Source: Octopus vulgaris (Eukaryota). Taken from it: a DNA stretch of 64,000 nucleotides. The position numbers and the translations under genes are program-made. Below are positions 5,444 to 53,151 of this stretch, piece by piece. The notes below the pieces were generated by a model. It was not told the origin of the DNA, made no database searches, and saw nothing but the letters and a program-made list of their open reading frames with translations. The stretch's first letter is position 1, and the number at the start of each line of letters is the position of its first letter. The stretch spans positions 106,578,001-106,642,000 of the forward strand of contig OX597817.1 in assembly GCA_951406725.2 (NCBI GenBank), written 5' to 3'.

Positions 5444-5485
5444 ATCCTTTGATAAGGTCTATGGATGAATGAAACTGGTTGGGAT
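5444..5485 (+). ncRNA. Degenerate minimal hammerhead motif
   Basis: atcct-TTGATAA-ggtc...gaat-GAAAC-tg-GTT-gggat; stem I atcc/ggat retained, core mutated. Confidence 0.35.
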
Positions 5486-8400
5486 GTTACAGTAAAACAA
5501 TTTAATATATCTAAATGAAATGTTACACCTGTTTTTTGTTTTTCAATTTTTCTAAAATGATTACAAGAATTATTTCAATGTTATTTTGCATTTTCACCCA
5601 TTTTCGTTTGGGTTTGATTCCACTGCATAGCATTTGCATACAAGTGTATTTTACTATATAGCCTATTGCATGAAATTGGGTAGATGGAAGCTATGTGCAA
5701 AATCCACTTGATGGACTGTAATTGTAATATAACCTGAGTTTTACATTAGAAGTACATACGTGTCTGTGAAATACTCAGCCACTTGCATAATAATTCAAGT
5801 AAATCAGTTAAATGAACCATTGAATATAATCTCATTGCTGGAACTAATGGAAGTCCATTACTTTATATATAGAAGTACTACAGAGTGCCTGAAATCTTTA
5901 TGAGGTCCAGTTATACAAACTACATAACAAGTTTCATAAATTTGTATTTAAAAAAAAATGCAACATATCAAAAAAGAAAACAAAAAAAATAAAGAGCAAA
6001 AGAGTTACTGAATTTGTATGAAAATATTTTCATTTATTTTATGATGATCCTCCAATATAATTTTACACAAACTTAATTGTTCATGACATAGCAGGAAATA
6101 ACTGTTGTAAAAATAAAGACAGTTTATTTATTCAATATTTTTTATTTTACATGAAAAATCTTGAAATAAAAAGCCATTGTAAATGTTAAAATTTTTGTTC
6201 TTTAGTTTTTTATGCGTGTGTGTATAATGTTTCAAATAATTACCGATAAATTTTCTAATCATGCTAAGATTTTCAGTGTTAAATATCATAAAATACCAAT
6301 CTAAGACAATGATAAGAATTCCCATTAGTAAGAATGCATCTTTTTTTTGTTCCTAAGCGAGGTCAGGCAACCAGCCTAATATATGGGAGGTAACTCTGAC
6401 AAAAACTTGTAAGCAATGGTTTGACTGCAACAAACATTATTGTCTATATTTTTGAAGATCTAATTGAAAAATTTCTTTATTAAATTGTGATTACATATCT
6501 ATCTATATATATAAAGAAATTGTTGATTAGCAAGAAATATTTGTAATAAAAATTATTTTCCCAGAGTACAGCAGCCTGGAACTCTCTTAGTCCAAGTTTT
6601 TCCAGGTACAATGAATATATGAGCAGGTACTATATCATCACAGAATGCTTGATGAAAAACACCTATGCTTTACCTTTCGAAAATATAACAATAAAAATAA
6701 ATAGAATACTACCTGTCTATTTTAAGGACTATACTTGTCGGTGTACAAGGCATTAAGACTTCTATCATCAGCACTAACAAGTAACTGTATTCCACAATAT
6801 TTAAGATTCATATGTATTATCTAGAACGTAAGAAGACCCCACCTTCATATTTTGGTAGAAGTAAAGGCTAAAAGGTCATCTTAAACACTTGTACAGTTGG
6901 TAGTCTAGAGAAAATTATATATGGAATAGCAGGTACATAATTTATTTCAACAAAGTTTTGTTGTAAAAGGTTTTCATCAATATAATCAACATCAGTATAT
7001 TATTTAGAACCTGTTTTATCTACATCAGAAAGTTATATAGCAAAATTGACTCCTTCTGAGGATTAATCTATCTATTTATGTTATTATTCCTTAACTAGAC
7101 AGACTTCCTTAACACAATTAGATTGCTATCTTCCTGTCAATAGGAGCCATTGCCTAATTGTTGCTTGACTTGTTAAAAATAACAGCCAAATCAAGCTTAC
7201 ATCACACCCTACTATCTTCAGGAAAGAAAAGACACCATAGTTGATAGAACTATTAGCAGAAGATAAAATCTATAAAGAGATGTACTGTGCTAAAATCTTT
7301 CCAACTTATGCCATGGAAAGAGAGATATGTAAAGTCTATAATAATAATGATTGATATGACTGACTGATGTAAGGTGGTAAGCTGTCAGAATCATTAGTGC
7401 ACTGGGAAAATGCTTAGTGGCATTTCATCCATCATTATGTTCCGAGTTGACTTTGCTTTTCATCCTTTCAGGGTCAAAAAATAAGTACCAGTTGAATACT
7501 GGAAGTCAATGTAACTGACTTCACATCTCCCCTCAATCTTGCTGGCCTTGTGCTAAGATTTGAAAGTGATATAACTGATTGATGGAGAAAGTTCAATGAA
7601 GTTACTTTTTACAACTAAATATAAACACATAATTTTGCTGAAACTTTAAAGGACAGTCATTTTGTAACTAGGAATGCATCTGTATATGACAGAAAGAATT
7701 AATTTTCATTGAAACATCTAAAAAGTGGACATTATTTTTATATTGCACCAGTCCCAATCCACAACCAGTTTTTTTCATTGAGTTTATGGACACTACATTT
7801 CTTTTTAGATATTTTAGTTCACATAACTATCAACAATAGTTACATGATCTTCTAAGAATGTAACCTAACGTATGTTCTAAGTTCAAAAGTCTGACTTTTA
7901 TAACATTAGGATTTGAAATATAATCTAAACACCAGGTGTGGGCAATTTTTTTAAAAAGTAGGCCACATGAAACATGGCTCAACATCAGATGGGCCACACC
8001 ACTAAAAAATATCAAGGTAACTTTTTTTTATTAGGCATACCATTCAGAAAGTTTCACTGTTTGCCTATGTCTCTTCTAAATTTTGATTCATGACAATTTT
8101 CTTTGCATTGCAAAAAGTTTTCAGATAGAATTTCAAGGTAAAATATGTCAATGGATGACTTAAAAAATGTTTGAGTATCATTATTTTCTAACCCTGCCAA
8201 TGATGGTGCATTAGGTTAATACCTGAATTTTCTTTCCTTTGTCTGCCTGGCAATAAACAAATCATTTGAGTACTTAACCCGTTCTATAGTCGAAATCAGA
8301 TATATCCACTCAAAATTTCATTACCTCTGATGGCAGTAAGCAGTTTTGTATACTAATCTATCTTTTGCTGAGGAATGTCAAATTTGAAACTATTTTTTGT

Positions 8401-9399
8401 TGAGATATGTCAAGTTTACTGAGGCAACGTAATGCATGAAATACCAATTCTATTTTGTGGTAGATATTTAACATTATTAATAGAATAACCATGAAATTAA
8501 ATTTCATATGTAAAGGTATAATTAACTAGAAATTGTTGTGTAATTTATTGATCTACAAGCCAAGATCTTCTGTGTCATAAGTGTGTATAACTAAACAGAT
8601 ATTCTTGTTTTGTAAATTATTTTCAATGCCTTTCATTGTAAAAAAAAAACAAAAGAACAAAAAATAACAGAGAGAGAATTAAAAGAAGAAAAGAAAATTA
8701 TCAGAATGGCAAATCCAAAGGAAACAAAAGGTGGAAACAGGTTATCAAATTATGAATTTTGCACCATTGATACTTCAAGTTTATCCTAGAATGCAGACAT
8801 AACCATGTTACATTGTATTTGCCAATAGTAATGTGCAGTTCATACATATGAACAATATGAAAATTGGAAAGATAATTACTATATAAAATCATCATTATCT
8901 TTATGAAGTAACTTATAACTTTAAACTAGTCATACCCTGAGATATATAGATGAAATTTAAGAAATGATATGTTTTTATCATGCAATGAGTTGGAAAACCA
9001 AATTTCACATTTTGTACCAATATCATAAATTCTCCAAAAATAAACGTTGAAAATTTTCTTTGATTTTAAAAAGGTTATATATATAAACAATTGCATTAAA
9101 TACAGAGGCTGGTACATCTGAATATTTTTATTTTTGCAGTTGATTATACAACATAACTGGTTTGCACAATTAGGTACTAAATGAGATTAAATAAAAATAA
9201 CTTCAATTCTATCAGGTATAATTATATATATATGTGGTATAAGGAACTTATTTATGATGTTAATATGAAAATTTCTCTGTGCAATCGAGTTTACAATTAT
9301 ATGTATTGCTAGGATTTATATAAATGTTATTTTAATTTAATGAGAATACTGACTGCTACTTGAAAGTCAAATCAGATATTATCCTGACATTTATCCCAT

Positions 9400-10500
9400 A
9401 AATTCAAACACCTCCCATTTACATGGAAGTATTTCAAGGTCTTTCTATGCAAGTGCAGGCCTCTTAAGGCTTGTTCCAGTCTACAATTAAGCAGCTGGTG
9501 TTTAGATGTAAAAACCTGGAAAATTTCCTCTATTTTTTCCCTCCTGTTATATAAGGTGCAGGCCTGCTAATTTTTTTTCTATGCTATCATTGCTAGCATT
9601 CCAATCCTTAAGGTACCACTTGAACATGTTGAAGCTAGTGTTATACATATTAATGCTATCCTTAAACAAATTTAAATGGTGTGCCAGCCTTGCCTTGAAG
9701 TTTCTCAAGCATGCACCAATATAGAAGTATGAATTTCTTTCTGATGTAATCTTACAACGGTATACTAAGTTTTTCCTCAAATCAGCATTTAAGAGACAAA
9801 TTTAATTTTTTCCATAACCACAAAAATTTTTTTCCCTACTAACTGTTTATACATTAGTGGGACTAGAACTAGATATCCTCCCAATTTCTGTATCTCTTGA
9901 TCTACTATTGTTTATACTTTGGTTATAGTCTTGGGCTCCTATGCTATTATGTCTAGCAATTGTTACACTCAGTCTTGTTTCAGTAAGAATTGTGAAAGTT
10001 GTCTCACTGCCACTGCCCATCTTCATTCGATGGTTTGTTCCCCTGCAATTGTATTTAATTGCAGTATTCAGGATCCTTCTTAGCTGGCTTTCTATCTTTC
10101 TGGCTCTATGTTCACGATTGTTAGCATTATAAGTACAGGCATCACTAATATTTCTACTAACTACGTTATTGCATGTTCTAGAATTCAGAAAGCCTAGTTT
10201 TGTACACAATTATAATTTGTGATAAGTTGCTTCTACAGAATTATGTTGCATAATTAACAGTAAAAATTTAAATTTAAATTTAAAAATAGGCAAACGTACA
10301 AGTCTCAATATTTGTTGCAATTGTTTCGGATTAACACGCCCAAATTTATTCTTAATCCAGTGAAGTGAACCCAGGAATTACCCATTGGACAAATTACAGT
10401 TGGATTGCCCTCCTTGAGTAATTCTAGGTACTCTTTACTACTCAATAGAGTTATACTGAATCTGGACTATACCTGAGTGCTCATTTAGTACCCACCTGGA
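9400..10500 (-). mobile_element. Penelope-like element relic (RT-EN linker plus GIY-YIG endonuclease)
   Basis: KNLVYRCKITS..YFYIGACLRNFKARLAHH...KWYLKD (GIY-YIG), downstream LLNCRLE, upstream FKFLLLIMQH..YHKL and KYNCRG; broken by stops and frameshifts. Confidence 0.75.
10310..10394 (-). ncRNA. Degenerate hammerhead motif just 5' of the Penelope ORF relic
   Basis: Minus strand: atttgt-CCAATGG...ttaatcc-GAAAC-aatt-GCA-acaaat; perfect 6-bp stem I; core decayed. Confidence 0.4.
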
Positions 10501-10514
10501 TGATTTACCACTAT

Positions 10515-10518
10515 AAAC

Positions 10519-10549
<31 letters not shown>

Positions 10550-10733
10550 TATGTATATATACATACATATATAGACACATATATATACATATGTACATGT
10601 ATATATATATATATATAGACACATATATATACACATGTATATGTATATATACATATATAAACACATATACATATATATACACATATACATATATATATAT
10701 ACACATATATACATAAATATATATATATAAACA

Positions 10734-10771
<38 letters not shown>

Positions 10772-11059: not shown

Positions 11060-11114
<55 letters not shown>

Positions 11115-12528: not shown

Positions 12529-12569
<41 letters not shown>

Positions 12570-13411: not shown

Positions 13412-16400
13412 CTGCAGAGAGAAAAAAAATTTTTTTAATTTGTAATGAAATAAGTACCAGAATATTAATATAAAGTTTATGGTGAAGGAAATGTCAGTAA
13501 TTAAAAAAAGATGCTTTGAAACATCAGTTATTTTTTTTTAACATTCCATTTGTGTGGAGATGGTTAGAACCAAATACCATAGTAATTTGATAAATGCCTG
13601 AAAGTAAGACACTTTAAAATTATTTTTGAAGCAGGAATAGCTGAGATGCAAACATGGTCACTTCCCAACTACATGGTTTGGGGTTCAGTCCTACTGGGCA
13701 AGTGTCTTCTATTATAGTCCCAGGCCAACCAAAGCCTTGTGAGTAGATTTAGTAGATGGAAACTGAAAGAAGCCTGTCACATACATATATTGTGTCTGTG
13801 TATTTGTCTAGGTTTTTGTCCCCCATCATTACTTTATAACTTGTGTTGGTTTGTTTACATCAACTTAGCAGTTTGTAAAAGAGACTGATAGAATAAGTAC
13901 CAAGCTTAAAAATAAACATTAGGTCAATTTGCTTGACTAAATACTTCAAAGTAATGCCCCAGCATGGTCACAGTCCAATGACTGAAACAAGTAAAAGATA
14001 AATGAGAAAGCACCATCCAAATAATGCCAGCACTGACATAAATCCAATGATGACAAAGACTGCACAGTGGAGACTGACATTAATTTCAAAATAATATTAA
14101 TGGAAATTAATAATTGATATTAAAATTACATTATCTGTAAAAAGAAAAACACACACAGTGTGGCTTCCTTTGTAATCGCAACTATTATAAGAAAATGATA
14201 GTAATTTCTTTGTAATCTTTTGTGGGATTAGAAATTTGAATTTGAAATTAAGTAACTATGAGAAAGTTGCATAGAATTCACATATTAAATCTTTTTGCTT
14301 GTTTACTTATTACAAAGTTCTTAAAATTTCTAGTCATGAATAGTACTATGTCATTCATTTTAGAAATTGTGAGCATGACCTGTGACTTATTAATTAAACA
14401 TTTTATGAAGAGAAACATTTCATTAAAAATGGATATAATTACAGCTTGAAAGAAATTCATTGAATTTATGTTTTTTGTTGTTGTTGTTGTTGGGATGGCA
14501 ATCATAGAACATTAGTAGTTTAGGAATCAAGAAAAATGAAAATAAGTTCTTAGTTTTGACATATGGGATAATAACAGTTTACAAGGAATTCTACCTTGTG
14601 AAAATGTTTATAGTAGCTCATAATTTCAGGTTTAGTAACAAACAACTTCACAAACTATTTTTTAATATATTCATTGAGGTATAGACATTCATTTCAAAGT
14701 ATTAACCCTTTGTATATCTGTTAGAACAGACATCTATTCACAAACATAACACTTTCACTATCACCAACAGTTTAAATGAATTTTTACAAAATCACTGCAA
14801 GAGCTTTTCAAACATGTGGTTCCCCTAGTAGTGACAGCTGTTATATGAGAGATAATCACTTCTTCATAATACTTGCTGAGATTATAAATATTTTTTTTTT
14901 ATTTCATGAGGATGTAATCGATCAAAAACAGAGCTTAAGGAGATAAGTTATAGGAAGAATGTAGGAAGTAATGATTTCAAAATTCTTTTCCACTTCAAAA
15001 TGAAATATTAAAAAAAAAAAAGCACAAAATCTTATTAAAAACTGCTAAATATGGGATTAGACTTAATTTAAATTAAAAATGAAAAATTGGCTAAAAACTT
15101 CTGAGAAAATTGTCTTTGAAAAATGTTTTGTAGCTTTGTAATCTATTTAAGAAATCGAAACAGAAGACAGTTATTTAATCCATTATCATAGAACATTGAA
15201 AAATATAGATATATGAATATATATACATACCATTCTTGCCCAAATTGGAAAAAATCCTTTATATAAAGACCAAAATCCTTCTGCTTTTACAGTCTTTGTT
15301 ACACAATCCCAAGAGGATGTATAGAGTATACCTCTGTAATTATATTTATAGTATGTATATCATAATAATAGTGTTTGTTATGTAAATTATAAGAATCATT
15401 TATGTAGAAAAGCAAAGTGTTATAAAAATGTTAAATATTCATATTAGTTCTTTCTCAAGTGAAACTGTAGTTGTGGATGGTGCTGGTGTCATGTATCAGG
15501 CACCCATGCCGGTGGCATGTAAAAAGCACCCTTTGGACATGGGGCCTCATGAAGGCAATGATAAGTGGCCAAGACCTTTGGCAATATGCCGTGCTTGTCA
15601 AGTGAAACTACAGTTGTGGCTGATGCCGGTGTCACATAACTGGCACCCATGCTGGTGGCACATAAAAAGCACTCATTACACTCTTGGAGTGGTTGGTGTC
15701 AGGAAGGGCATCCAGCCATAGAAACCATGCCAAATCAGACAAGAATCTGGTACAGCTCTCCAGCTTACAGTTTCAGCCAAGCCATCTAACCCATGCCAGC
15801 ATGGAAAGCAGACATTAAATGACGATGATGATGATTAGTTCTTTTTCACTATGAAATTACAACATTTAATGTCCACTTTTCCATGCTTGCATGGATTAGA
15901 CAGAATTTGTTGAGACAGATGATCTTACTGTCACCAACTCTCACCTGTTTCTAAGTCAGGTAATACTTTCCCATGACCAGACATGTTTTCACAGAAGACT
16001 GGGAAAGAAGAACACTGCTTCAATGATGGAGACATTTGTATACAACTATCACACAATGTCTAGAAGACAGTAACACATACACAGATATATATATATAAAA
16101 GCACCTGTCGAACGTTGGACCTCATGGAGCCAATGTGGCCAATGCCAGTATCGCATAACTGGTACTTGTGCCAGTGGAATATAAAAAGCACCTTTCAAGC
16201 ATTGGGCCTCATAGAAGCAATGACAAATGACCGAGACCTTTGGCAATATGCTGTGTTTGAGAAGACCCATCAAGCCAAGTGAAATTGTAGTCGTGGCAGA
16301 TACTGGTGTCACGCAACTAACATCCATGCTGGTGGCATGCAAAAGCACCCATTACACTCTTGGAGTGGTTGGTGTTAGGAATGACATCAAGCTGTAGAAA

Positions 16401-19400
16401 CCATGCCAAATCAGACTGGAGTCTGATGCAACCCATGCCAGCATGGACAACGGACATTAAATGATGATGATGATGATGATATATACCCATACATATATAT
16501 GACAGGCTTCTTTCAGTTTCTGTCTACCAAATCTACTCACCAGGTTTTGGTCAGCCTAGAGCTATAATAGTAGACACTTGCCTATGTTGTCATGCAGAGG
16601 GACTGATCCTAGAACCATGTGGTTGGGAAGCAAACTTCTTACCACACAGCTACACTTGCACCTATTAAGACGACTATAAGTAAATATGTGAAGGCGCAAT
16701 GGCCTAGTGGTTAGGGCAGCGGACTCGCGGTCGTAGAATCGCGGTTTCGATTCCCAGACCGGGCGTTGTGAGTTTATTGAGCGAAAACACCTAAAAGCTC
16801 CACGAGGCTCCGGCAGGGGCTGGTGATCCCTGCTGTACTCTTTCTCCCACTCTTTCCTGTTGGCCTGCTCGCTTAGCCAGCGGGGTGGCGTCATTCGAAG
16901 GCTAAAACAATGCGAACGCATTGTGACTACATCTGATGGACTGGTCGGTCACATGATGATGACGTGATGATAAGTAAATATAGAATTTTACTGGGCTTAA
17001 TAAATTAATATTTTGAGTGAAAAGTTATCTATAGATCAGTTTTCTGAATCAAATCTCCATTTCTTTTACAATACAAAATTCACCAACACATTACTTTACA
17101 GAGCAACTCTCAATTTAATAAAGAAGTCAGCAGAGGTTATTAATACTTTAGTATAATTGATAGGTGCAGGTATGGCTGTTTAGTAAAGATGAATCTAAAG
17201 AGGTTGTTTAGCATCTTGTTGGAGGCAAGAGACACTGTAAATGTTACTAAGCATTTTGATTTGCAAGAGATGGCTAAAATGGTGGGGAATGATCTGACAA
17301 GATAATCTCATTGAAGAATTTTACTCAATGGACATGTGACATACAATATACAATATACAAACATCAAGAGAAGAATTCAAGCTATATAAAGAACATGATG
17401 GTGCCATGTAAAAGACACCCAGTACACTCTATGGAGTGGTTGGTGTTAGGAAGGGCATCCACCATAGAAACCATACCAAAGCAAACAGGAAAGCTTAGCA
17501 AAAACCTCTAGTTCACCCAGTGCCTGTCAAACCACCCAACCCATGCCAGCATGGAAAATGGATGTTAAACAGTTGTGAGGATGATGATGATCTAGAGAAA
17601 TCTAGGTAACAATACATCCTTCTCTGAAAACTACATGCTCCTAGATTGTCAATCAAGAAAAACAGCTTACTTTCCATTTTTTGTTGGTTGATTCATTATC
17701 CTTGTTTTCACAACATCAGCTGGGGTACCTAATGTAGCAGCTACAATTCCTGACATTACACTGAAACAGCATTGAAACACATTTACAGCTACATGGTTTA
17801 TAAGATCTTTTCTTTTGTTTTTGTTCTTTGTTGTTTTTCTTTCTATTTGCATAAATAATTTATTCCAAAATATAATCTCAAATATAAATAAAAGAAAGAT
17901 AGCTTTTTCTAAGCCAATGAAAAAGAAAATGTAAAATTTGAAGTAAATTGCCATTTTTAAAAAAATGGTTATAACTGATGTAAAAAGAAAGACTGTATAG
18001 ACATTCTCTGAATGAACCAATGGGGAAAGTGTCTACATAGCCATCTCACCTGCTAATAATAGCAGCCATAGCTTCAGTACTATGGATATGTGATTAGAAT
18101 ATCATGAGAAATAACTGCAAGACAAATTCTTCAAGCTTAGCCAACAGGCAGGAGACCAAGAGGTAGACAAAGAATGAAGTTGGCTGGATATCCATAATCT
18201 CAATCATGCTAGGGAATCCAGCAGAAAAGTGTAATGACAGTTGCTTCTGATAGGACCCTATAGAGGAGAGGCCTGAGAGCTCTACCTCCATACAAAATTT
18301 ACCAACATCTTGTCTTACCACTATTCCAGGGAATAGTGGTAAGACAAGATGGGTGAATGGATATTGTACAAAAATAAAGATGGGTGAGGTTATAGCTGGA
18401 ATGTCGTGATCATCCTGTTAGAAACCTGCTGTCAAGGATTTAACAACAATTATGGTTGATACAGCCACCAGTCATTCTCAGAACTCTTGACTACATGCCC
18501 TACACTGTCACAAATAGTTCTGCTCTTTCACTCACTTTCACTTCATTTCTTAGGCCAACTTTTGATTAATAACAAATATTTCTCCTAACTAATAAATATT
18601 ATTAAAGAATGGTAAATGATGTAGAACCAAAGTTAGACCCAGCAAATAAAGTCTGTGAGTTGGATTTGAATTTCACTTGAAGTCATTTCATTTCATTTAT
18701 ACCATCCATTCTTAAGAATGTATCTGTATTAAATTGGTATGGAATTACAGACTCCTGTGGGTTGGTTATATTGTACATTTAAACAATCAAACAACTGTTG
18801 AAACAAGTTTTTTGAAGAGCCAACTATTGGTATGTAACTACAAAGCAAGTCCAAGAAATGATACAAACACCATCAAATACCCATCTTTATAAGAAGCACA
18901 CATAAACTACAAACAGTAATGTATTGATGTATAAGGCAACTCCTTTTGAGAAAAATTGTCTTTAAGGGATCAAACAGGTCATAAAACAATTAACTGCATA
19001 ATTTATTGACATAGAAACCTAGTCAGTATCATCAAATGGTAAATAAATAATTTCTTTCTTTACTTCAGAACCGTCATCCAACAGTATACAGAAGATAAGC
19101 AACAATGCTATAGAATAAGAAACAATTAACAGTTTAGCATTCAGAACTCTCTGTCAAATATAATGTTTATTTATTTACATTGTTTTGAGTTAATCATGCA
19201 TTATCTTGTAGCTTTGAGAGTTCCCTGATGTCATTGTTTGTGTTTAGAATGACACCGTTAGGGGCTCAATCTGGCCAGTTAGAACATAAAACAGGAAGAA
19301 TATATAAGAATTAAGCAATACTTCTTGATTAATATTTTAATTACCAATCAAAAGAAAATTATAATATTAACTTGTTTAGAGCTAATTACAAATCTGCTTA

Positions 19401-22400: not shown

Positions 22401-24891
22401 AAAACAAAAACAAAAATAGAAATAATAATTATAATAAATTTCTACAAAAATAAAAAAGGTTATATCAAACAATGAAATATAAAAAAAAAACATAGTTAAA
22501 GTAAAATCTAACCTGACTGGATTTCCCAAGAGCCTATTTTTGCCTTCCATTTGCATCTGTACTTTAATAAGATCAGTAGGACTAGCAACAAACTGTCCTA
22601 ACATACCTGCTGTTAATCCACAACAAGCAGCTTTCCTAAGGAAAGAAAGCAACCACAATAATAATTACAATTACTTTTATTGGGCTCAAGGGCCCAAGAA
22701 GCTAGAGACAGTACAAAGGTGAAATACAAAAGTAAGCTAGTAACAATGAGTGATTTACATTGAGTGAAAATGTGAAATCAAAAATAATAAACAGATAATA
22801 AATAGCGATAGTAGCATAGAAACACCAAGAAAGAAGCTCAAATGGGGAAAATCACTTTGGATGTGAAGAAACCTGAAACTCAAAGGGGTGTAGTATTGGA
22901 TTCGATCCCACATTTTGCCACATACAAATTTCAAGTCACAATTCAATCGTGGTTTGGTCATGGGTGCATCTGAGAGCTTGTCCAATCAATGGTTTTTGTT
23001 TGCATGATAGTTCTTTAACCTGTCTGGAACTTATCATGAAAGTAGAAAGTGCAGTTTTTGTGATATGGAAAGATGGCTCATCTGGAAAAGCAGCTTAGAC
23101 CACACTACATGTCTAAATTCAAGAACTGAACTTTTCAGATCATGTCCACATATGGCTAAATATTTGTTACATTTTTAGTCCCCTCAAGATCACAGATAGA
23201 ATCTGCTTTTTATATTGTGTCCACGTACAAGCATTTTATCTCTATATATGTCTTATTTTTTAAACAAGAATATATTTGTTAAGATATTTCATATTTTACA
23301 AGATTATTTACGTATATTTATTAATTTATCTATATATTATTATTGTTATCTTTAACCTGAAGAGTGGCTATATTTATATTGAAGTGATTTTACTACTACT
23401 ACTATTATTTTTACTATTATCATTTCTTAAATATAGCCATGAAACACGTGTCATTATTCTACCAAATATATACGTTTTATTTATTATTTTGCACATTACT
23501 TAATCATTATTATATGTTTTATCTTATATTTAATCTTTCTATAATATGTAATTTTTCTAAATGGTTGTAATTTAATTTTTCATAATTGAATTGATAAAAG
23601 GTGGTTTTTTTCTAATTTATATATATATATATATATATTGTGAAATTTGATTTAGTATTTCTAAATTGAATTTTTCCCTGTAAGTTTGGAATAATATTCC
23701 CTCATATTATTATTTATATATATATATATACTCTATAAATAGCCGTACTCAATTTGCTTCATACCAACTGATTTAGGAAAATGAATGGGTTATTTCCCAT
23801 GGCTGTTAAAATCTGGGCAAAAGGGTTATTTCCCTTGGTTGTTAAAATGAAATATATTAGATATATATAAGGATCCCTTCCAGGGGCCCAATTATCGATG
23901 TTTTCAACAATCTGAGTATCCCATGAGGTTTCACATCTTCACACTTAGCAACTTAGCAGTCTGGTATATAAAAAAAAAGACAAATAGAATAGGTATCAAA
24001 TTTTAAAACAACAAGTACTGGGTCCAATTTGTTCAACTAACCCAGAGGTGGGGTAATTTTTTAGTGTGGTGGGCAAAAACTTCCAAAGTAAAAGGTCCGC
24101 ATGCAGATCACAAATCCTAACTCTTATATCTGTGTAGATCTTGTATATCATCATCATCATCATCATATCTATGTATAATTCAATATACATTAATAAAGAT
24201 AAGCTTAACACATTGAATTAACAATGCTGCAACTGAATTTAAGACATTTATATTACTTATGAGGTATTCTATATTTTTCAGCTAGAGCGTAGTTGGATCT
24301 CAAGGGAGTGGTACAAACCTACCAATGTGTTTTATAGTGAAAACAAAATTTCCATTCAAATGGCAATTTTCTGTTCGAGTCTAGTAGTTTTAAGTAGTAG
24401 TTGAAACATGACCTATGTCACAAATACGTATACAAATATTGTATAAATTTTATACTTGAAAAATTTACTATATTTTGTACATACGAGTATATCAGCCTAT
24501 GGTGCAATAAAACGGGCTTGCGGGCACAATTACATCCATGGGTGAGGGTTTCATAACTCTTGGACTAAACCCTTCAAGGCAGTGCCCCAGGATGGCTGCA
24601 GTCCAGTGACTGAAACAAGTAAAGATAAAAGACAAATTGTACCCAAATCACATAACCAGCATTTGATAAAACTCCTCTTTTACACTTTTATTTGTTTCAG
24701 TCATTTGACTGTGGCCATGCTGGAGCACCGCCTTTAGTCGAGCAAATCAACCCCAGGACTTATTCTTTGTAAGCCTAGTACTTATTCTATCGGTCTCTTT
24801 TGCTGAACCGCTAAGTTACGGGGACACAAACACACCAGCATCGGTTGTCAAGCGATGTTGGGGGGACAAACACAGACACACAAACATATAC

Positions 24892-24928
<37 letters not shown>

Positions 24929-27900: not shown

Positions 27901-27965
27901 TAAAATTAGCATCAAGCATAAGGGTGTACTTGGCACCTAACTTGTTAGAAATAGGAGTTAATACC

Positions 27966-28001
<36 letters not shown>

Positions 28002-29431
28002 AATAAGTAACAAGGATATCCAAGGTAGTGTAAGAAGAACATGTTCTTAATGATGAAATTAACCTCTCTGTCTATATGTCTACCCTCTTTGTAATGTTGG
28101 CAAATGAAATAAGTATAAAAATGTGCATTGCCTGTTTAATTAAAAAATTCTATATGTGGCTGAAGATTGCTCAACATTTTAAAACTGATGTAATACTTAC
28201 ATTGTTTAATAAAATGAAGTAGCATGAAACAATTGTACTACACTACCTTGGATATCCTTGTTGCTTATTTTGATTATAATCACCCCATTTGATTTATATG
28301 GATAATACCATACAAAATTCTGGTGTCTTTAACTTAAGTACCATATTCATCTGAATCTAAATTTTGCTGTATATATATAAGTCATATGATATAGTGTATA
28401 TTTAAACACATGAGGAATCCACTCAAAGGAATTCAGCATGCTAGAAAGAAGAGCTAGGTTCTATAACCACAAAAATTAGGGATAAAATTCAACAGGAACG
28501 AAATATATATATATATATATGATGGGGTGCTGAAAAGTTCCTGGCTTTGGGTAAAAGGAAATACAGGAGGATCAGTTAAGTATGATTTTATTCAACATAT
28601 TCCCCTCTCAGATTCACACACTTATTGCAGCAGTCCTTCAAGTTTTCTAATCCCTGTAAAAGAACTCAGAAGATTGGGCCTCCAATCAAGCTTTTCACGA
28701 TACTCTTAAAGCCAGGAACTTTCCAGGACCCACTCAAATTAATTATTATTATTAATATTATTGTTATAATTGATTCTCCTGTCATTAGACATTGTATGAG
28801 GGTTCTGCAATTTCTTGTTGGGCATCCACACAGGTAATTTTTTTTTATAGTAATCAAATGTTTGTTTTCACATAGGCTTACACCCTCCATCAAATCAACA
28901 TTGCCTCCTCTACAGGTGCACAACTGTGCTCACATATCAGAAGTGAAAACGATCGCAGAGCAACATGAAATGAAGTGTCTTGCTCAAGAACACAAAACAC
29001 TGCCTGGTCAGGGAATCAAACCCATGATCTAGCAATTATGAATGCAACATATATACGTACATATATCTATATACATATAAATTTAGGGTGAATACTTGAT
29101 AAATGTAAGCACCTGTATAGGTGATAGGATATATGTATCAAAAGAAAAACAGGACGCAAAGGATTTTGCGGTACATATGTTTCGGGCTTTATTGAACAAC
29201 TTATTCTTATATCAATGCATAATTGATATAACAGATAGATCAAAAGCCTTCTTCAGCCACGTACAATTACCACACCAAAGACATGTATCACATTATAACA
29301 GGTTTGAGAAAGAGTTTGAGAAAAAAACGAGTTTCATTGGGAAAGTAAATCCTCATAGGCGTACATGGTATTGTGAGACTCCAAAACAAATCATCCATAC
29401 CTTTTCTTCACTCGATAAAGAATGAATATAT

Positions 29432-29488
<57 letters not shown>

Positions 29489-29920
29489 AAAATATAAATA
29501 ATATATAAATATATGCATACATACATACATATATATGTATATATACATGCATATATGGGTACAGGACATCAAAAAAAGGTTGAACACAATGAGAAACGAA
29601 AACATAAAAACAAAAACATAGAAACAAACTTTTTTTCAAGCAAGTACAAGACATACAACACAAGGAATATCCCCCTTCTTAAGTTGTCCCTGTTTCATGT
29701 ACTCCGCGTTTTGAAAGTAAGGACAAGATGCGACTTCGTTGAAACAGTCCTTCCCGCCAAGCAAATTAAATAAAATTTGGGATTTTTTGCAGAGGGTGAA
29801 AGTGGTAACAAGAACAGGGCAGTAAGAACAAAACAGTAAAAACAATAAAAGACAGAACAATACATATATAAACATATATACATACATATATATGTACATA
29901 TATATATATATATACACATA

Positions 29921-29968
<48 letters not shown>

Positions 29969-30205
29969 CATATATATACATACATATACATATATATATA
30001 CATATATATACATATATACATATATATACATATATACATATATATATACACATATATATACATATATATACACATATATATACATATATACATATATACA
30101 TATATATACATATATACATATATACATATATATACATATATACATATATATACATATATACATATATATACATATATACATATATACATATATATACATA
30201 TATAC

Positions 30206-30242
<37 letters not shown>

Positions 30243-30261
30243 CATAAATATATATACATAA

Positions 30262-30312
<51 letters not shown>

Positions 30313-30313
30313 C

Positions 30314-30350
<37 letters not shown>

Positions 30351-30604
30351 CATATATATACATATACATATATATACATACATATATATATACATATACA
30401 TATATATACATACATATATATATACATATATATACATACATATATATATACATATATATACATACATATATATATACATATATATACATACATATATATA
30501 TACATATACATATATATACATACATATATATATACATATATATACATATACATACATACATATATATACATACATACATATATATACATACATATATACA
30601 TACA

Positions 30605-30642
<38 letters not shown>

Positions 30643-30785
30643 CACATATATACATACATATATATACACATATATACATACATATATATACACATATATA
30701 CATACATATATATACACATATATACATACATATATATACACATATATACATACATATATATACACACACATATATACACATATAT

Positions 30786-30830
<45 letters not shown>

Positions 30831-30859
30831 TATATGTAAATATATACACACACACACAC

Positions 30860-30900
<41 letters not shown>

Positions 30901-30937
30901 CATATATATATATATATATGAATATATGTAAATATAT

Positions 30938-30968
<31 letters not shown>

Positions 30969-31021
30969 AATAAACATATATATATATATATATATATATG
31001 AATATATGTAAATATATACAT

Positions 31022-31062
<41 letters not shown>

Positions 31063-40420: not shown

Positions 40421-40464
<44 letters not shown>

Positions 40465-40823
40465 CATATATTTTTTGTTTTTTTATCTCGCCTCACACAC
40501 ACACATACACACACGCACACACTCACACACATCTGTTGCGTTACCAACCTTGTCTCCACTCTTTTGCCTTTAAAAACCCACTTTGCTCTTGTTATCGTAA
40601 ACATCCGCCTTTCACCATGTGTAACTCCTAAACACCAGTCGTTTTTTTCTCTATCCCCGTGCCCGCTCTGGGATCTTTCTTTCCTCTCTCTTCCTTCTTT
40701 ATGTTTCCGACGAAGAGCTCCGCTCGAAACGTCATACCTCCCTGCTTCCATTTCCTGAGCGCCTATTAATAATAATACTGTAATTGTTCCATTGTTGTTG
40801 TTTTTTTGTTTCCCATTTGGATT

Positions 40824-40854
<31 letters not shown>

Positions 40855-43834: not shown

Positions 43835-45424
43835 TTCACTGGTCAGTTTACGCAGTACCAGCATGGGTGCATTTACACAACACTGGCACAGGTGCTTTTT
43901 ATGCGGCAAGCCTGTATGTATGGAAGACAACGATTTTCCTTAACTTGACGCATCTTTTCAAGTGCAGCAAATCCCCACATCTCCTATCTCCGATCACTTG
44001 TCTTAGTTGCCTGCTTATGATCTCTATCTATTTCTCATAACAAAAACTTTGTTAGACTGCTCCCTCGGAGTATGGAGTCATTATTTCTCGTTTTATCAAC
44101 TCTAGTGTTTCTAGATTTTCATTTTTACATTTTCTTCTCACTGTCATTTCTAACAATATACTCCTCTGCAAATAACACTTCTCTTTACTCACTCCTTAAT
44201 CTTTTACAAAAGCTTCCTTCACATACAATTTTGATACCACTCACCAAACTTGCTCTGCTACCTTAAACAGAGGCCTCAAAATCATCTTACAATGGTAGAT
44301 AGATGACATTTCCCGACATATATGGCAACATATGAGCATTCATGCTGGTACCATATTAAAAGCAATGATACTGGTGCCATATAAAAAGCACCCAGTACAC
44401 TCTGTGGAGTGGTTGGCATTAGGAAAGCTATCGAGTCATAGAAACCATGCCAGAACAGACAATGGTGCTTTGTGCAGCCCCTGACCTTACCAGCTCTGGC
44501 CAAACAGTCCAACCCATGCCAGTATGGAAAATGGACGTTAAATAATGATGATGATTCTTTTTTGGAATGTTGGATCTTGAAGCAGATAAGCTATGAATAA
44601 TTGCATGTAAATATTGGGTTTAAAACCCTTTAGCTTGAAGTTTATAAAAAAATTCTTATGAAAGTTATAGTTCATATTTCTCATTTCTATTGAGGATTAT
44701 TCGCTCTGATAGACAACTATGACTAATCATAGTAGGCCAAGAAAAACTAATTCTATGTTAGTATGTGCAGACATGCATGAGAGAGAGAGAGTGTGTGTGT
44801 GTGTGTGTTTATGTATTTATATATTTTATATCTTTTGGAAGGAACTGGATCGTGAAATTTGGACTGTGTCTAGTTGTTACCCTTCATCTCATACGTAAAT
44901 GTCAACAAACTGTAAAGACTCATCATAAATAGCTACTAAGTCATGAAGTCACAAGACAGTCAACTGTTTTAAGTGTACCCACACTTTACAAAAGTAGGTG
45001 AGCAGTACAACCAACCATCATTATAAATATGTTACTGCTCTAATTTTTAGAGTGTGCTTCTTTTTTTCAGATGTATGAACTACTGCTGAGTATGTGAAAA
45101 ACAACATTCAAGTGTGGTCGTTGCCAGTGCCGCCGGACTGGCTCCCATGCAGGTAGCACATAAAAACACCTTTTGAGCATGAGCATGGTCGTTGCCAGAA
45201 CTGCCTGACTGGCCCTCATGCCAGTGGCATGTAAAAAGCACCCACTACACTCTCGGAGTGGTTAGCATTAGTCAGGGCATCCAGCTGTAGAAACTTTGCC
45301 AGACCAGATTGGGCCTGGTGCAGCCACTGGCTCACCAGTCCTCAGTCAAACTATCCAACCCATGCCAGCATAGTAAGCAGACATTAAATGATGATGATAT
45401 ATATATATGTGTGTGTGTATGTAT

Positions 45425-47460
45425 ATCATACCCAATGACTGGTGTAGCAGCACCATAGTCAACTGCTACAAAGGTAAAGATGACACTTTAGTTACAAATA
45501 ATTACAGAGGTATCAAGTTGTTGGATCAGGTAATGAAGGTTACAGAGAGGGCCATTGCCCAACTAATTAGGGAGAGAGTCAGTTTAGATGATATGCTGTT
45601 TGGGTTTGTGCCAAGGAAAAGCACCACTGATGCTATATTTCTGGTAAGACAGCTGGAGGAGAAATACCTAGCCAAAGATAAACCTCTGTACCTGGCTTTC
45701 GTTGACATGGAGAAAGCCTTTGATAGGGTCCCCCAATCCCTTATCTGGTGGTCAATGAGGAAACTAGGGATAGATGAATGGTTAGTGAGAGCTCTGCAAG
45801 CCATGTACAGGGACGCTGTCAGTAAGGTGAGGGTTGGCAATGAGTACAGTGAAGAATTCCAGGTAGAGGTAGGGGTCCACCAAGGTTCAGTCCTCAGCCC
45901 CCTACTATTTATCATAGTCCTCCAGGCAATAACAGAGGAATTTAAGACAGGATGCCTCTGGGAGCTCCTCTATGCTGACAACCTTGCTCTAATTGCTGAG
46001 TCACTATCAGAACTAGAGGAGCAGTTTCAGGTGTGGAAAAAAGGATTAGAATCAAAGGACCTTAGAGTCAACCTAGCTAAAACCTAAGTCCTAATAAGTA
46101 GGAAGGCAGACAAACCACAAATCCCTTCAGGTAGATGGCCCCGCTCGACCTGTAGAAAAAGCGTAGGTAGAAACTCTATAAGATGTACCCAGTGTAAGTT
46201 ATGGACACATAAGTGGTGCAGCAATATCAAAGGAAGGCTAACTGGGAAGATAGTTTTTGCATGTGGCAGATACTCAGGAGCAATAAACACTGAAAATGTG
46301 CAGAGAACAACTTCCACCACATTCCAGGGAGAAAAACTAGAAGTAGTTGATAGCTTCCATTACCTAGGTGACCAAGTCAGTAGCGGGGGAGGGTGCACTG
46401 AAAGTGTAGCTGCTAGAATAAGAATAGCCTGGGCAAAGTTCAGAGAGCTCTTACCTCTACTAGTGACAAAGGGCCTCTCACTCAGAGTAAAAGGTAGACT
46501 GTATGATGCATGTGTATGAACAGCCATGCTACATGGCAGTGAAACATGGGCTGTGACTGCTGAAGACATGCGTAAGCTCGCAAGGAATGAAGCCAGTATG
46601 CTCCGATGGATGTGTAATATGTCAGTGTGCATACTTGACAGAGTGTAAGTACCTTGAGAGAAAAGTTGGACCTAAGAAGAATCAGATGTGATGTGCAAGA
46701 GAGACACCTGTGCTGGTATAGTCATGTGGCGAGAATGAATGAGGATAGCTGTGTGAAAAAGTGCTACACCCTAGCGGTTGAGGGAACCTGTGGAAGAGGT
46801 AGACCCAGGAAGACTTGGGATGAGGTGGTGAAGCATGACCTTTGAACATTAGGCCTCACCGAGGCAATGACTAGTGACCGAAACCTTTGGAAATATGCTG
46901 TGCTTGAGAAGACCTGGCAAGCCAAGTGAGACCATAACCCTTGGCCTATGCCAAGGGTGTAACCAGCCCACTTATGCGTACCTTTCCTTCCGAAGACCTG
47001 TTGAGTCAAGTGAAATCAAAATCGAAATCAAATTCAATGACTGGCATCCATGCTAGTGGAGCGCTAAGAGCACCATCCGAGCATGATCATTGCCAGAGCA
47101 GCTGACTGGCTTCCGTGCCAGTGGCTTGTAAAAAACACCATTCAAGTGTGATTGTTACCAGCATTGCCTTACTGGCATGTGAAAAAACATTCAAGTGAGG
47201 TCATTGCCAGTGCTGCTGGACTGGCTCCTGTACAGGTGGCACGTAAAAAACACCATTTGCCAGTACCGTCTGATTGGCACGTAAAAGCACCCATTACACT
47301 CACAGAGTGGTTGGTGTTAGGAAGGGTATCCAGCTGTAGAAACTCTGCCAGATCAGATTGGAGCCTGGTGCAGCCATCTGGTTCACCAGTCTTCAGTCAA
47401 ATCTTCCAACCCATGCTAGCATGGAAAGTGGACGTTAATAACAATAATGATGATGATGCT
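45425..47460 (+). mobile_element. 5'-truncated RTE-clade LINE (RT, PHD-like insert, modular 3' UTR, (GAT)n-like tail)
   Basis: NYRGIKLLD, FVDMEKAFDRV, GVHQGSVLSPLLF, LYADNL, YLGD, HGSETWA; stop at 46085-46087 and later frameshifts. Confidence 0.92.
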
Positions 47461-48914: not shown

Positions 48915-50790
48915 AAGAGCACCTATTTTTTACTAACCGTATTCTCCTGTAGCACTCTTTTCTAATCTTCTCTTTCATTGCTGAATGTTTTATGCCATAA
49001 CTATCATCTATGCCAAGGTATTTATATGCTTCTTCTTGGTCCAGTGCTCGGATTCTTGCTTCTGTATCTACGTGGATATCCACAGAACATTGCCAGTTTG
49101 CCTCTTATGAAAGTGGCTTTCGCACAATTCTCTAGTCCAAACTGCATCCTGATATCATCACTGAACTTTTTAACTGTAGCAAGTAGACCTCCTTGTTGTT
49201 CGTCATTTTTTGAGTACATTTTCAGATCATCCATGTAGAACAGATGACTCCCTTTTTTCTTCTTGATCTCATATCTATACCCGGTTTTGTTGAGCATGGT
49301 ACTTAATGGTGCCAGTGCCAAGCAGAATATTAAGGGTGACAGCGAGTCCCCTTGGAAGATACCACTTTTGATTGGTCTGCTTGTTATTGATCCACTGGAA
49401 TGGTTCAGCGTCAACATAGTTTCCCATGTATTCATGCTGTGTTTCATAAACTTGATGAGAGTTGGGGATACTTTGTATACTTCCATCACTTTCAGAATCC
49501 ATGAGTGAGGTACACTATCGAATGCCTTTTTATAGTCAATCCATGATATGCTCAAGTTCGTTTTCCTGGTTTTGCAGTCTGCAAGGATCATTTTGTTTAT
49601 CAGCAATTGGTCCTTGCATCCATAGCTCCCTCTTCGACAACCGTTTTGTTCTGGTGGTAGTAGGTTGTTTTCTTCTAGAAATGTGTATGTTCTTTCAGTG
49701 ATAACAGATGTTAATATTTTATACATTGTTGGTCGACAGGTGATTGGTCTATAGTTCTTTGGGTTTTCTGTGTCATTTGTTTTTAGTATTAGGTATGTTA
49801 CTCCCTGTGTCAACCAGTCTGGGCTATTTTCTGGGTTTTTCATGACTTCGTTGTATGCTGATTACATATCTCCATGTATATCAACTAGCTGTTTGATTCA
49901 GAAGTTTGGTACTCAATCTATTCCCGATTACTTCCAATTGCTGGCCTTTTTCAGGGCCAGGATGACCTCCTCCTTTTGAATATCTTTCCATTCCTGTACT
50001 TCTTTATTTTCCAGGAGTGTTTCTTGTTCCTTAATCCATTCTGCATCTTCATTATGTTGTTTTTCATTTTCCCATATCGTACTCCAGAAATTTTCCATAT
50101 CCTCTTTCTTTGGTGGTTGCTCAACATTTATTTGTTTACTGAGTTTCCTTTAAAATTTCTTTCCATCTTCTTTAAATAATTTGTTTTGTCTAAATTGTTT
50201 GCTTCTCTTTATATATCATGACAATCGTTGTGCCTTTGCTTGGATTTTTTGCTTTAGGTATTTCATTTTTTTGTTTGATCCCATGCTTTTGGCATATTTT
50301 CTTGGCTTTTCTTTGGTTGACCTGGTTTCCGTTACTTATTTCGGTCAGTATTGATAGGTCACCTCTCATGCATTGGATATCCTTTTCTAAGTTTTCTTTC
50401 CATTTTGGTTGTCTTTTCTTCTGGTGAGCAGTTTTCTTTTTTAGTTTTATGCCTTTTGCTTCAATAATAGTTGCAGCTGTAGCAAAGGCTAGTTGGTTTA
50501 GCGATGTTATATTTAGTGGTTCTATTGTTGTTGATTTTATCTCATCTATTACATTATTGCCAATTTTAATCAACACCTTCAGGTTCTTATCCATACTGAC
50601 TTTTGGTAGGGGCTCTCTGTCTGTGGTGTCTTGTGCTTTTACCTGTTCCCATTTTCTCTGTATTTCTTCTTTTAGTTCCAAATATTTCTCCTTATCCATG
50701 TCACTTTTTTGTGCTGCTGATTGTTTAACAGGTTCTTCTATCACATTATCCACAGAGGGCTGGCTTTTGCACATTTCTCTAGTCCACACA
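48915..50790 (-). mobile_element. R4/Dong-type (RLE-clade) non-LTR retrotransposon fragment
   Basis: PDWLTQGVTYLILK..NYRPITC..EQNGCRRGSYGCKDQLLINK..WIDYKKAFDSVPHSW..GIFQGDSLSPL..HLFYMDDLK, with an upstream QPKWKENLEKDIQCMRGDLS segment; frameshifted. Confidence 0.85.
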
Positions 50791-51163
50791 TACGACGGTC
50801 TTCTTTCAGTTTCCATCTACCAAATCCACTCACAAAGCTTTGGTCAGCCTGAGGCTATAGTAGAAGATACTTGCCCAAGGTGCCATGTAGTGGGACTGAA
50901 CCAGAACCATGTGGTTGGTAAGCAAGCTACTTACCACACAGCCACTCAAGATTGAAAAATCTCTTATACTGATTTGTTCTCTCATTTATACGATGCTATT
51001 TTTGCTGCAACTCACTATCTAACATTTATTTAGCAATTATTACCAATATATAACCTATTACTCACTGGACAAGTTTTATACCAATATTAGTAATTATATG
51101 AGATTCAGTCTGTTGAGATATTTTGGAAGAATAACATGTAATAACCTAACAATATGTCTTTTC

Positions 51164-51249
51164 CACTCCTCTGATGAGATTTTGCCCAATAAAATGTTTT
51201 AATTACTGGAATTTAATTATTTTGGGCAAAATCAAAATAGCAGTAAGTG
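51164..51249 (+). ncRNA. Degenerate hammerhead motif
   Basis: CTGATGA-gattttgcccaa...ttgggcaaaatc-AAAA-tagca-GTA; perfect 12-bp stem II, but GAAA is mutated to AAAA. Confidence 0.55.
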
Positions 51250-51469
51250 AACATGTTGAATTTTTGCAGTTAATAAATTATATTAATGTTACTTCTCCAT
51301 TTTCTGGATTTTAATTTGAATATTCATAAACCAAGATTTATATTTAAACCTATTATTTTAGGAATATTACTATTCACAACAAAATAATGGATAACAAACT
51401 AGTAATTCATTGGATATTTTCTATGCCTTATGGTGGTATTTTAACCTCTATTTAAATTATTATTATTAT

Positions 51470-52030
51470 TGTTTAACATCTGCTTTCCATGCTAGCATGG
51501 GTTGGACGATTTGACTGAGGACTGGTGAACCAGATGACAGCACCTGGCTCCAATCTTGATCTGGCAGAGTTTCTACAGCTGGATGCCCTTCCTAACACCA
51601 ACCACTCCGAGAGTATAGTGGGTGCTTTTACATGCCACCGGCACAGGGGCCAGTCAGGCAGTACTGGCAACGACCTCACTCGAATGTTTTTTCACGTGCC
51701 AGTAAGGTGATGCTGGTAATGATCATGCTTGAATGGTGCCTTTTATGTGCCACCGTCATGGAAGCCAGTTAGCCACTCTGTCAACAATCATCCTCAGATG
51801 GTGCTCTTAGCGCTCCACTAGCACGGATGCCAGTCATAGAATTTGATTTTGATTTCACTTGCCTCAACAGGTCTTCGCATGCAGAGTTTAGTGTCCAAAG
51901 AAGGAAAGGTACGCATAAGTGGGCTGGTTACACCCTTGGCATAGGCCACAAGGTTATGGTCTAATTTGGCTTGCTGGGTCTTCTCAAGCACAGCATATTT
52001 CCAAAAGTCTCAGTCACTAGTCATTGCTTC
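51470..52030 (-). mobile_element. 3' end of the same RTE LINE family as 46860-47460, inverted
   Basis: Reverse complement matches gtgcttgagaagacc...gtaaccagcccacttatgcgtacctttccttc...ccaacccatgctagcatggaaag. Confidence 0.85.
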
Positions 52031-52796
52031 TATTATTATTATTATTATTATTATATTTTAAAAGGATTGCCGTAACTCTTCACAAAGGTAAACTGACAAG
52101 AGAAAAAGCACAATGCGATTGCAATAGATATTTTATTGGTTGAACAATATCTTGACAGCAAGTCTGTCTTTGTTGAGTTCAAAATAAAAAGTGATAAAAA
52201 TTCAAAACTGTAGAAATTCAAATCTAAAATATGAACAAGGGCAACTATTGTCTACATGTTCATAGAATGACATCATCAGTCTTTAAGTTTCAATTTTATA
52301 AATGGTGAAAAGGAAAAGACAGAAAAAAAAGCAAGAAAAAAAGGAAAGGGAAGAGCTAGTGTGATGGATTTTCTTGAGAAAATGGTTCTCAGAGTCTTAC
52401 TCTCATTAGATTCCCGATTACTTTTTGGGCTTTGCTTGAAATCTTCACTTAAAACATGGAACCTATTGGGTGATAAAATTTGTTCTGAATGTTCATGTGA
52501 GAAGTTACAATTTTTAGTTGTCTTTCTAGGGGTAATCCATTTCTGGGTGGGTGATAGAAAGTGAGTGACTTCTGTGACTTTTGTAGATATTTGAAAAACC
52601 TTTACTTTCAGGAAAGGAACAAATTTATTGTTTTTTGAGGAAAAATCTTAAATGTGCTCACATTTTTGACTGATCAAATAAAAACTTCTCTGGAGAGTTT
52701 CCAATGATCAGTTCAAATGCATACACCTGGGTTAAAAGGCCACAATCACATGTGCCAACTTGGGGATTAGTAATATGAACTTGTTGAACTGTAGAA

Positions 52797-53151
52797 ATTA
52801 TGTTTGTTTATGTCGAGTACAGCATTGCTATTTGTGCAACAAGGATATCCAGAGGTAATGCAGTACAATCATTTCATGTGACTCCATTTAATTGAACAAT
52901 GCAAACATTACATCAATTTAAAATGTAGAGCAATCTTCAGCTGCACAAAAAACATAGAATTTAATTAAATTTGAAGGACACATTAGTATAATTTTATCCA
53001 AAATCTCCAAGAGGATAAGGAGATAGACAAAGAACGTGTTTTACCAACAACATCACAGTTGTAACTAATGTGTCCTTCAAATTTAATTAAATTCTATGTT
53101 TTTTGTGCAGCTAAAGATTGCTCTACATTTTAAATTGATGTAATTTTTGCA
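52797..53151 (-). mobile_element. Second copy of the same hammerhead-bearing element, with an 88-bp inverted duplication, inserted into the mariner ORF
   Basis: 52900-52987 and 53064-53151 are inverted repeats (2 mismatches); mariner coding sequence resumes on both sides. Confidence 0.7.
52859..52945 (-). ncRNA. Hammerhead ribozyme motif, same family as 28155-28242
   Basis: Minus strand: tgcag-CTGAAGA-ttgct...cat-GAAAT-gatt-GTA-ctgca; perfect 5-bp stem I; flanks homologous to about 28070-28263. Confidence 0.7.

Follow-up and report, generated by a model that had tools for sequence, protein, structure and literature searches.

What kind of element leaves hammerhead ribozyme motifs scattered along a stretch of octopus DNA, and why is stem II so long in many of them? 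The question is raised by 64,000 nt of the Octopus vulgaris genome (GCA_951406725.2, contig OX597817.1, positions 106,578,001 to 106,642,000, forward strand; hereafter the window, whose own numbering is used throughout). An earlier note, made from the sequence alone, had listed at least eight such motifs here and ascribed them to small non-autonomous retroelements. Six of these sit instead on 5'-truncated 3' ends of Penelope-like elements (PLEs) beside (TA)n and are not separate mini-elements. On sequence criteria, five are assigned to ends of the Hydra clade and one to a Neptune end. This is not a new class of element; what is unusual is a long arm in a known kind of PLE hammerhead. It is highly probable that the motifs are hammerhead folds in the pseudo-long terminal repeat (pLTR) of these retrotransposons, left as 5'-truncated ends at (TA)n. 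The long, paired domain II is likely to be additional structure that is tolerated and stays folded so that the catalytic core can still form.

Hammerhead folds on element ends

Six of the eight proposed motifs are type I hammerhead folds with predicted cleavage. Three are intact (23357(+), 28160(+) and 29256(-)), two are decayed (52940(-) and 51171(+)) and one is a short variant (40707(+)); their sequences and the families to which they belong are collected in Table 1. Other members of the families of the two decayed copies hold the full core, and the unusual core of the short motif is identical in 15/15 family copies. The 23357 motif differs by two CpG-type changes from most family C copies among the matches listed. 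The base of stem II is U.U or A.C in families A and B, and the U.U of 28160 is shared with many published Hydra motifs (PMC8557442). The long stem II of roughly 55-80 nt that had been reported in five copies was confirmed by measurement at 56-77 nt.

The comparison with dinucleotide shuffles that the earlier note had named beforehand came out in favour of the motifs. A strict type I descriptor allowing stem II up to 100 nt found three matches, all with the palindromic stem III that had been described, as against 0.12±0.41 (maximum 2) in 60 block-wise shuffles, all 60 of which lacked any match with a palindromic stem III. With one core mismatch allowed, the window held 9 matches compared with 2.8±1.7 in 12 shuffles. 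Folded alone, four of the five long domains II gave z-scores of -5.6, -3.0, -2.6 and -3.8. The suspicion that such motifs escape Rfam models was partly justified: none of the 125 matches to the window at E<=5 was a hammerhead, but the short motif was missed as well, so the blank cannot be blamed on the long stem alone.

Two of the proposed motifs found no support. At 10310(-), which is antisense to the endonuclease of a PLE relic, CUGANGA is present in 0/12 aligned copies, GAAAC occurs in the window copy only and the fold has a z-score of +1.0. At 5444(+), the exact core is absent, the z-score is +0.6 and 11/11 homologous old repeats have no core there. The statement that the stems are mostly unrelated also requires adjustment, as 28160 and 52940 come from sister families (74.5% identity over 208 nt); for unrelated families it stands, with no domain II sequence in common and lengths that range widely.

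As had been supposed, the motifs belong to several multi-copy families. First-look candidates numbered 2809 (A), 1950 (B), 2359 (C), 1554 (E) and 682 (F), figures that are not copy numbers, and 40 of each were scored (at 90-94% for family C). Ends were analysed in the 80 best-scoring loci (30 of A, 25 of B and 25 of C). Fixed 3' ends adjoin (TA)n, (TCTA)n or a similar repeat in 29/30, 23/25 and 21/25 of these, respectively, in line with the (TA)n preference that had been proposed. Family A has two 3' ends about 100 nt apart, one at the pLTR end and one at the tail; a hairpin in this tail (GGUGY/GUACC) is kept in 7/9 aligned rows, the other two having no tail, with little covariation. The 5' ends are scattered, from -124 to -1631 in A and from -105 to -1262 in C, while those of family B were excluded because the reference contained an insertion. 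An inverted piece lies at the 5' junction in 21/80 loci (12/30, 6/25 and 3/25), and direct tandems were found in 1/80 (0/30, 0/25 and 1/25). The same pattern of ends characterises the truncated PLE insertions of PMC8557442 and PMC4209133.

Every motif-bearing family could be traced upstream into predicted reverse transcriptase (RT) and/or GIY-YIG endonuclease (EN) coding sequence. Together with the fixed 3' ends, the scattered 5' ends and the near absence of direct tandems, this overturns the proposal of small non-autonomous mini-elements. The link to Penelope-like RT and GIY-YIG itself holds, although the relic in the window (9085-10510), to which the earlier note had pointed, is of a different, old family. 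For example, in family A, locus L101 runs from (TA)n through an inverted pLTR piece, a 5'-truncated RT, an asparagine (Asn)-rich linker, a GIY-YIG EN and a 1-kb 3' untranslated region (UTR) to the hammerhead, the tail and again (TA)n. Loci L200 and L203 each hold an EN of the L101 type and a family C hammerhead; L229 links a Hydra EN, at 73% identity to the one in L193, with a 3' UTR and the family B end; and L225 and L161 join Hydra-type coding sequence to the family F end. In family E, a Neptune-type RT and EN lie about 3 kb upstream in 3/5 extended copies.

L101 and its relatives encode RT and then a C-terminal GIY-YIG EN within one open reading frame (ORF), and the Pfam GIY-YIG match in Hydra-type EN is seen only below the cut-off. 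Families B, C, D and F were assigned to Hydra by EN/RT similarity. The RT of family E is like Neptune references, with a CxxC..CxxC linker before GIY-YIG (L220-L222) and a by-eye match to Neptune1_Ap; its RVT_1 and GIY-YIG matches are below the Pfam cut-off. Family E (L137-L151) is a young Neptune family with copies 95-97% identical, a U4C core, a mismatched stem I and a CA-rich 3' UTR of about 3 kb, and its relatives have a normal core.

A search with the family A RT gave 6,251 candidates, of which 150 were scored, with open frames of up to 1091 aa. Among the 20 regions listed around these matches, an RT frame is present in 19, and 18 contain a hammerhead in sense orientation whose spacer measures 51-61 nt. 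In full-length relatives, whose frames are open over 950-1090 aa, the 3' pLTR has a motif built to the same design, and in tandem insertions this recurs 210 nt before the ATG. RW[KR], DKT, CxCx5C, CxxC and CxH, the Hydra signatures as defined in PMC8557442, occur together in 7 frames of at least 950 aa (among L185-L190, L196 and L197) and partially in others. The Hydra ORFs of these loci (950-1090 aa) contain two long Asn-rich insertions and are open in many copies. These appear to be recently active families, longer than published Hydra elements. L185 holds the motif twice, 4,650 nt apart core to core, and the predicted cut site of its 5' copy lies 210 nt before the ATG. Among the matches listed, L076 contains an RT remnant that resembles Hydra-1_Obim by eye.

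The window families thus share much with the published Hydra clade of C-terminal EN+ PLEs (PMC8557442). Both have the RT-EN order, RWK, DKT, CxCx5C and CxxC/CxH, (TA)n targets, inverted 5' pieces, a tail, and a sense type I hammerhead near the 3' end, in which stem III has the form A-C...G-U and stem II often starts from U.U at its base. However, Hydra units are generally described as shorter than 3 kb, whereas those here reach about 4.6 kb (4,650 nt in L185), with Asn-rich insertions and 3' UTRs of 1-2.6 kb. Unlike published Hydra, the families here are many and have a very high copy number. The earlier note held that the long-stem-II variants may be undescribed in cephalopods; hammerhead-bearing PLEs as such are not, as File S2 of PMC8557442 lists Hydra-1_Obim from Octopus, with a short stem II. 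The minimal PLE hammerheads of PMC4209133 are also similar in their dispersed single motifs of truncated PLEs, palindromic stem III, opposite-strand pairs 100-700 bp apart, extra nucleotide after A9 and dimer model. Family E fits these closely, except that its U4C core is not among the variants in the available part of that paper.

Several other assignments were rejected. The apparent terminal inverted repeats of 27993-28278 suggested a miniature inverted-repeat transposable element, but what looks like the left arm is a stretch of the PLE end in inverted orientation, and it differs among the copies listed. A Naiad element, with an N-terminal EN and the 'half-core' motifs of PMC8557442, is contradicted by an EN that comes after the RT. 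Family E is not a fixed-length mini-element, as its copies continue for more than 1.7 kb and reach a Neptune ORF. Neptune was also rejected for family A in favour of Hydra.

Length and pairing of domain II

The abundance of these motifs was assessed genome-wide with the pattern CTGANGA-N-GAAACRNNYGT, which captures exact cores of the 8-nt stem III class only and in which one core may fall in several bins. It gave 60,801 matches compared with 1,613 in a reversed control. By spacer length, there were 10,783 matches at 6-30 nt (394 in the control), 14,939 at 31-54 nt (474), 29,363 at 55-85 nt (339) and 5,716 at 86-115 nt (406), so that spacers above 30 nt account for 82% of exact cores. Against this background the window is ordinary and does not hold the dense set of motifs that had been claimed: three exact matches compare with 1.4 expected from the genome mean (Poisson P 0.16), and the 55-85 nt class alone has 0.67 expected (P 0.03). 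Among fetched loci, 91 distinct long motifs fall into 26 clusters at 82% identity after a basal-stem filter. Spacer lengths are graded in look-alike families, and the loop of family C shows microsatellite growth, in both cases among the matches listed.

The long arm is an unusual feature, two to three times longer than in published relatives. File S2 of PMC8557442 has 26 Hydra rows, in which domain II does not exceed about 26 nt, compared with 51-85+ nt in the window and its relatives. What is called a 'large' helix II in PMC4209133 has 6-8 bp; here it has 20-30 bp, interrupted by internal loops. A long domain II is not without precedent: PLE-X1_sMoe and PLE-X1_sTam are listed in File S2 of PMC8557442 with a spacer of about 50 nt and flagged as deviating. 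These are single families of EN-less elements from spike-moss with a long loop on a 9-bp stem, and no covariation is shown for them. Beyond these spike-moss PLE-X rows, no published long domain II was found in animal PLEs or cephalopods, with some supplementary data, which may show long stems, lying outside the search.

This has consequences for surveys. The core-only search of PMC8557442 used a spacer of 7-17 nt, a range that holds 4,101 of the 60,801 exact cores (7%). The long stem II does, as had been foreseen, fall outside short-spacer descriptors, and surveys with 7-17 nt patterns would miss most exact cores. Reports of PLE groups without hammerheads merit a re-run with long spacers.

Is the long domain II kept paired? 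In 16 aligned copies from sister families in the lineage of 28160 and 52940, a hand-drawn structure was paired in 84% of 514 cells, compared with 34-52% when the same structure was slid, and 15/33 pairs had changed on both sides. Against a tree-aware null, in which the same substitutions were re-placed at random along the tree, the 21 pairs of the extension were paired at 0.81 compared with 0.66±0.04 (0/1000). Same-branch compensatory events in the extension numbered 5 compared with 1.1±1.0 in the null (P 0.003). For the five pairs at the base the signal was weaker (P 0.04), with compensatory events that were not significant, and stem I showed three compensatory events. The long arm is therefore likely to be kept closed.

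What the long arm may do

Cleavage is predicted at the GUH site of the window and family motifs. Stem III forms no monomer hairpin, and the intermolecular duplex of six 8-mers is computed at -7.8 to -13.1 kcal/mol. An 8-bp duplex between two molecules fits the dimer model of PMC4209133, in which the tested PLE examples cut weakly. The role of PLE hammerheads is called open in PMC8557442 and PMC11167929.

With domain II as tolerated structure on a PLE hammerhead, events may be pictured as follows. The GIY-YIG domain would nick (TA)n, and the RT would start 40-140 nt 3' of the cut site, copying RNA still uncleaved at that point. By stopping early and folding back it could then yield short ends with inverted pieces, outnumbering full copies, and the window copies would be dead on arrival. 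A single motif would be inactive because its stem III could not close as a monomer. Two motifs, from the two pLTRs of a tandem transcript or from two RNAs, may join by their 8-nt palindromes and undergo slow cutting, probably with help from the protein of the element, which would free unit RNA or mRNA from a longer transcript. Occasional release of this kind from a tandem or host transcript would be the likeliest role. Domain II may have grown by loop insertions in several lineages, with selection keeping its closure and neither its sequence nor its exact length.

Several observations weigh against this picture or limit it. Of 13 long copies, not one has its start at the predicted cut site, and each continues across it, so the inserted ends are not set by cleavage; the lack of copies starting there does fit uncut RNA as the template and the protein-assisted cleavage described for an anole PLE (PMC11167929). 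Whole monomer folds of 28160 and 52940 (z-scores of -0.6 and -0.1) do not improve on shuffles. With RNAalifold, stem I and the apical hairpin were the only parts recovered, and GAAA was paired with stem III. The structure used for covariation was drawn from one aligned row, which favours it, and null rates were uniform. One lineage holds its spacer at 57-60 nt while its sequence diverges, which fits function better than tolerance. The link of family B to coding sequence depends on the single locus L229, the placement in Hydra and Neptune follows motifs, EN/RT similarity and by-eye comparison with published proteins, and the loci analysed for ends, the best-scoring 25-30 of thousands, are biased to long young copies.

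The alternative that survives best keeps the same PLE origin and makes domain II a working module: a dock for RT/EN or a substitute for the missing loop I-loop II contact that would switch cleavage on, possibly giving an mRNA 5' end for cap-independent translation. We hold this as a tentative alternative, clearly the less probable. Pairing is kept by compensatory change along the whole extension, spacers stay at 57-60 nt across families with RTs 73-90% identical to the query (among the regions listed), long forms dominate the genome and the 5' motif lies 210 nt before the ATG. Published cases point the same way: the anole PLE hammerhead cut only with the element's protein (PMC11167929), and in a chrysovirus UTR, cap-independent translation required the hammerhead to cleave (PMC13725137). 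However, no extension sequence is common to unrelated families, spacers run from <17 to >100 nt, published Hydra elements carry spacers of <=26 nt and in type I motifs the cut falls 3' of domain II. In its boldest form, a distinct hammerhead with a long arm would have evolved in the Hydra PLEs of this genome. Its domain II of 20-30 bp would be under selection as a module, a dock for protein or a switch for cleavage, that licenses a cut shortly upstream of the ORF, and with some 50,000 copies above 30 nt it would be the main ribozyme form. This too seems doubtful; if true, animal hammerhead counts obtained with short-spacer descriptors would be severalfold too low. The many recent Hydra families with open ORFs and the natural series of domain II lengths with covariation make the role of the arm directly testable.

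It is improbable that the motifs are no longer catalytic and serve as structural signals by which the RT binds or initiates. In favour of this, the cut site is always read through in the copies, in vitro insertion of the anole PLE was not impaired by catalytic mutations (PMC11167929), family E spread with its U4C core and weak stem I, and U.U or A.C stands at the base of stem II in A and B. Nevertheless, all core positions, NUH and stem I, with its compensatory events, are kept across families with unrelated stems.

Least likely are small retrozyme-like elements that use enzymes borrowed from PLEs and replicate via circles: the majority of copies are indeed short and lack coding sequence, and like animal non-long terminal repeat retrozymes (PMC7229834) they have type I hammerheads, low GC and thousands of copies (here, candidates per family), but those retrozymes are head-to-tail tandems of 150-450 nt non-coding units with no coding link, whereas the window families are solitary ends of coding elements, so that the scattered 5' ends, the 1/80 tandems and the continuity into RT/EN in all six motif-bearing families largely refute this origin for them. 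Retrozyme-like elements do exist in the genome, outside the window. Tandem arrays whose units measure about 535 nt, and in which every unit contains a hammerhead with a 49-50 nt spacer, were seen at C1:16526556-16529082, C1:5011306-5012441 and C1:13783446-13784583.

Feature map of the window

Table 1. Hammerhead motifs, PLE ends and associated pieces in the window
Feature	Position	Strand	Details
Old Hydra-type PLE relic	9085..10510	-	broken GIY-YIG EN (~9430-9830) and 3' UTR on the - strand; inverted 3' end ~10228-10510 beside (TA)n
Family C	23251..23714	+	5'-truncated 3' end (pLTR and tail) of Hydra-type PLE; internal and terminal (TA)n
Type I hammerhead	23353..23456	+	core 23357 (CUGAAGA), domain II 77 nt, then GAAACACGUGUC; 12-bp basal stem; stem III ACACGUGU; predicted cut after 23452 (GUC)
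Inverted piece	27993..28032	-	element's own 3' end at its 5' junction, beside (TA)15; 40 nt, 95% complementary to 28239-28278
Family A	28040..28379	+	5'-truncated 3' end of Hydra PLE; pLTR to 28278 and ~100-nt tail
Type I hammerhead	28156..28241	+	core 28160, domain II 59 nt, GAAACAAUUGUA; stem III ACAAUUGU; predicted cut after 28237 (GUA)
Tail hairpin	28322..28342	+	GGUGY/GUACC, between pLTR end and second 3' end; conserved in sister families
Family B	29075..29425	-	5'-truncated 3' end of Hydra PLE; sense to host gene's intron
Type I hammerhead	29168..29260	-	core 29256, domain II 66 nt, GAAACAUAUGUA; stem III ACAUAUGU; predicted cut after 29172 (GUA)
Family E	40462..40828	+	5'-truncated 3' end of Neptune-type PLE, flanked by two (TA)n runs
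Minimal hammerhead	40703..40737	+	variant core CCGACGA with an extra A; stem II of 4 bp; stem III ACGU; stem I weak
Family F	50948..51455	+	older 5'-truncated 3' end of Hydra-type PLE
Decayed hammerhead	51167..51249	+	core 51171, domain II 56 nt, CAAAAUAGCAGUA; GAAA and stem III mutated in window copy
Family A2 (sister of A)	52836..53063	-	3' end with decayed hammerhead, core 52940, domain II 58 nt; GAAAU replaces GAAAC
Inverted 5' piece of A2 copy	53064..53151	+	88 nt, 98% complementary to 52900-52987

The relic at 9085-10510 lacks a hammerhead; the 3' half core is present in 7 homologous loci and not in the window copy. Three motifs lie within a mitochondrial carrier gene (15189-33800(-)), which has Pfam Mito_carr matches above the cut-off in four exon frames and which we take, from its motifs, to be UCP4-like. 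The intact core at 29256(-) is sense to the pre-mRNA of this gene, and those at 23357 and 28160 are antisense.

Elsewhere in the window, a 782-aa open frame at 638-2986(+) has an N-terminal hydrophobic stretch and no Pfam match of note, and broken DNA-transposase-like frames lie at 54200-55967(-), with DUF4371 below the cut-off. RT remnants of long interspersed nuclear elements occupy 45398-46519(+) and 49022-50816(-). Minisatellites at 32756-33093 and 35516-35844 consist of 21- and 25-nt units in 16 and 13 copies, respectively, with 94-97% match.

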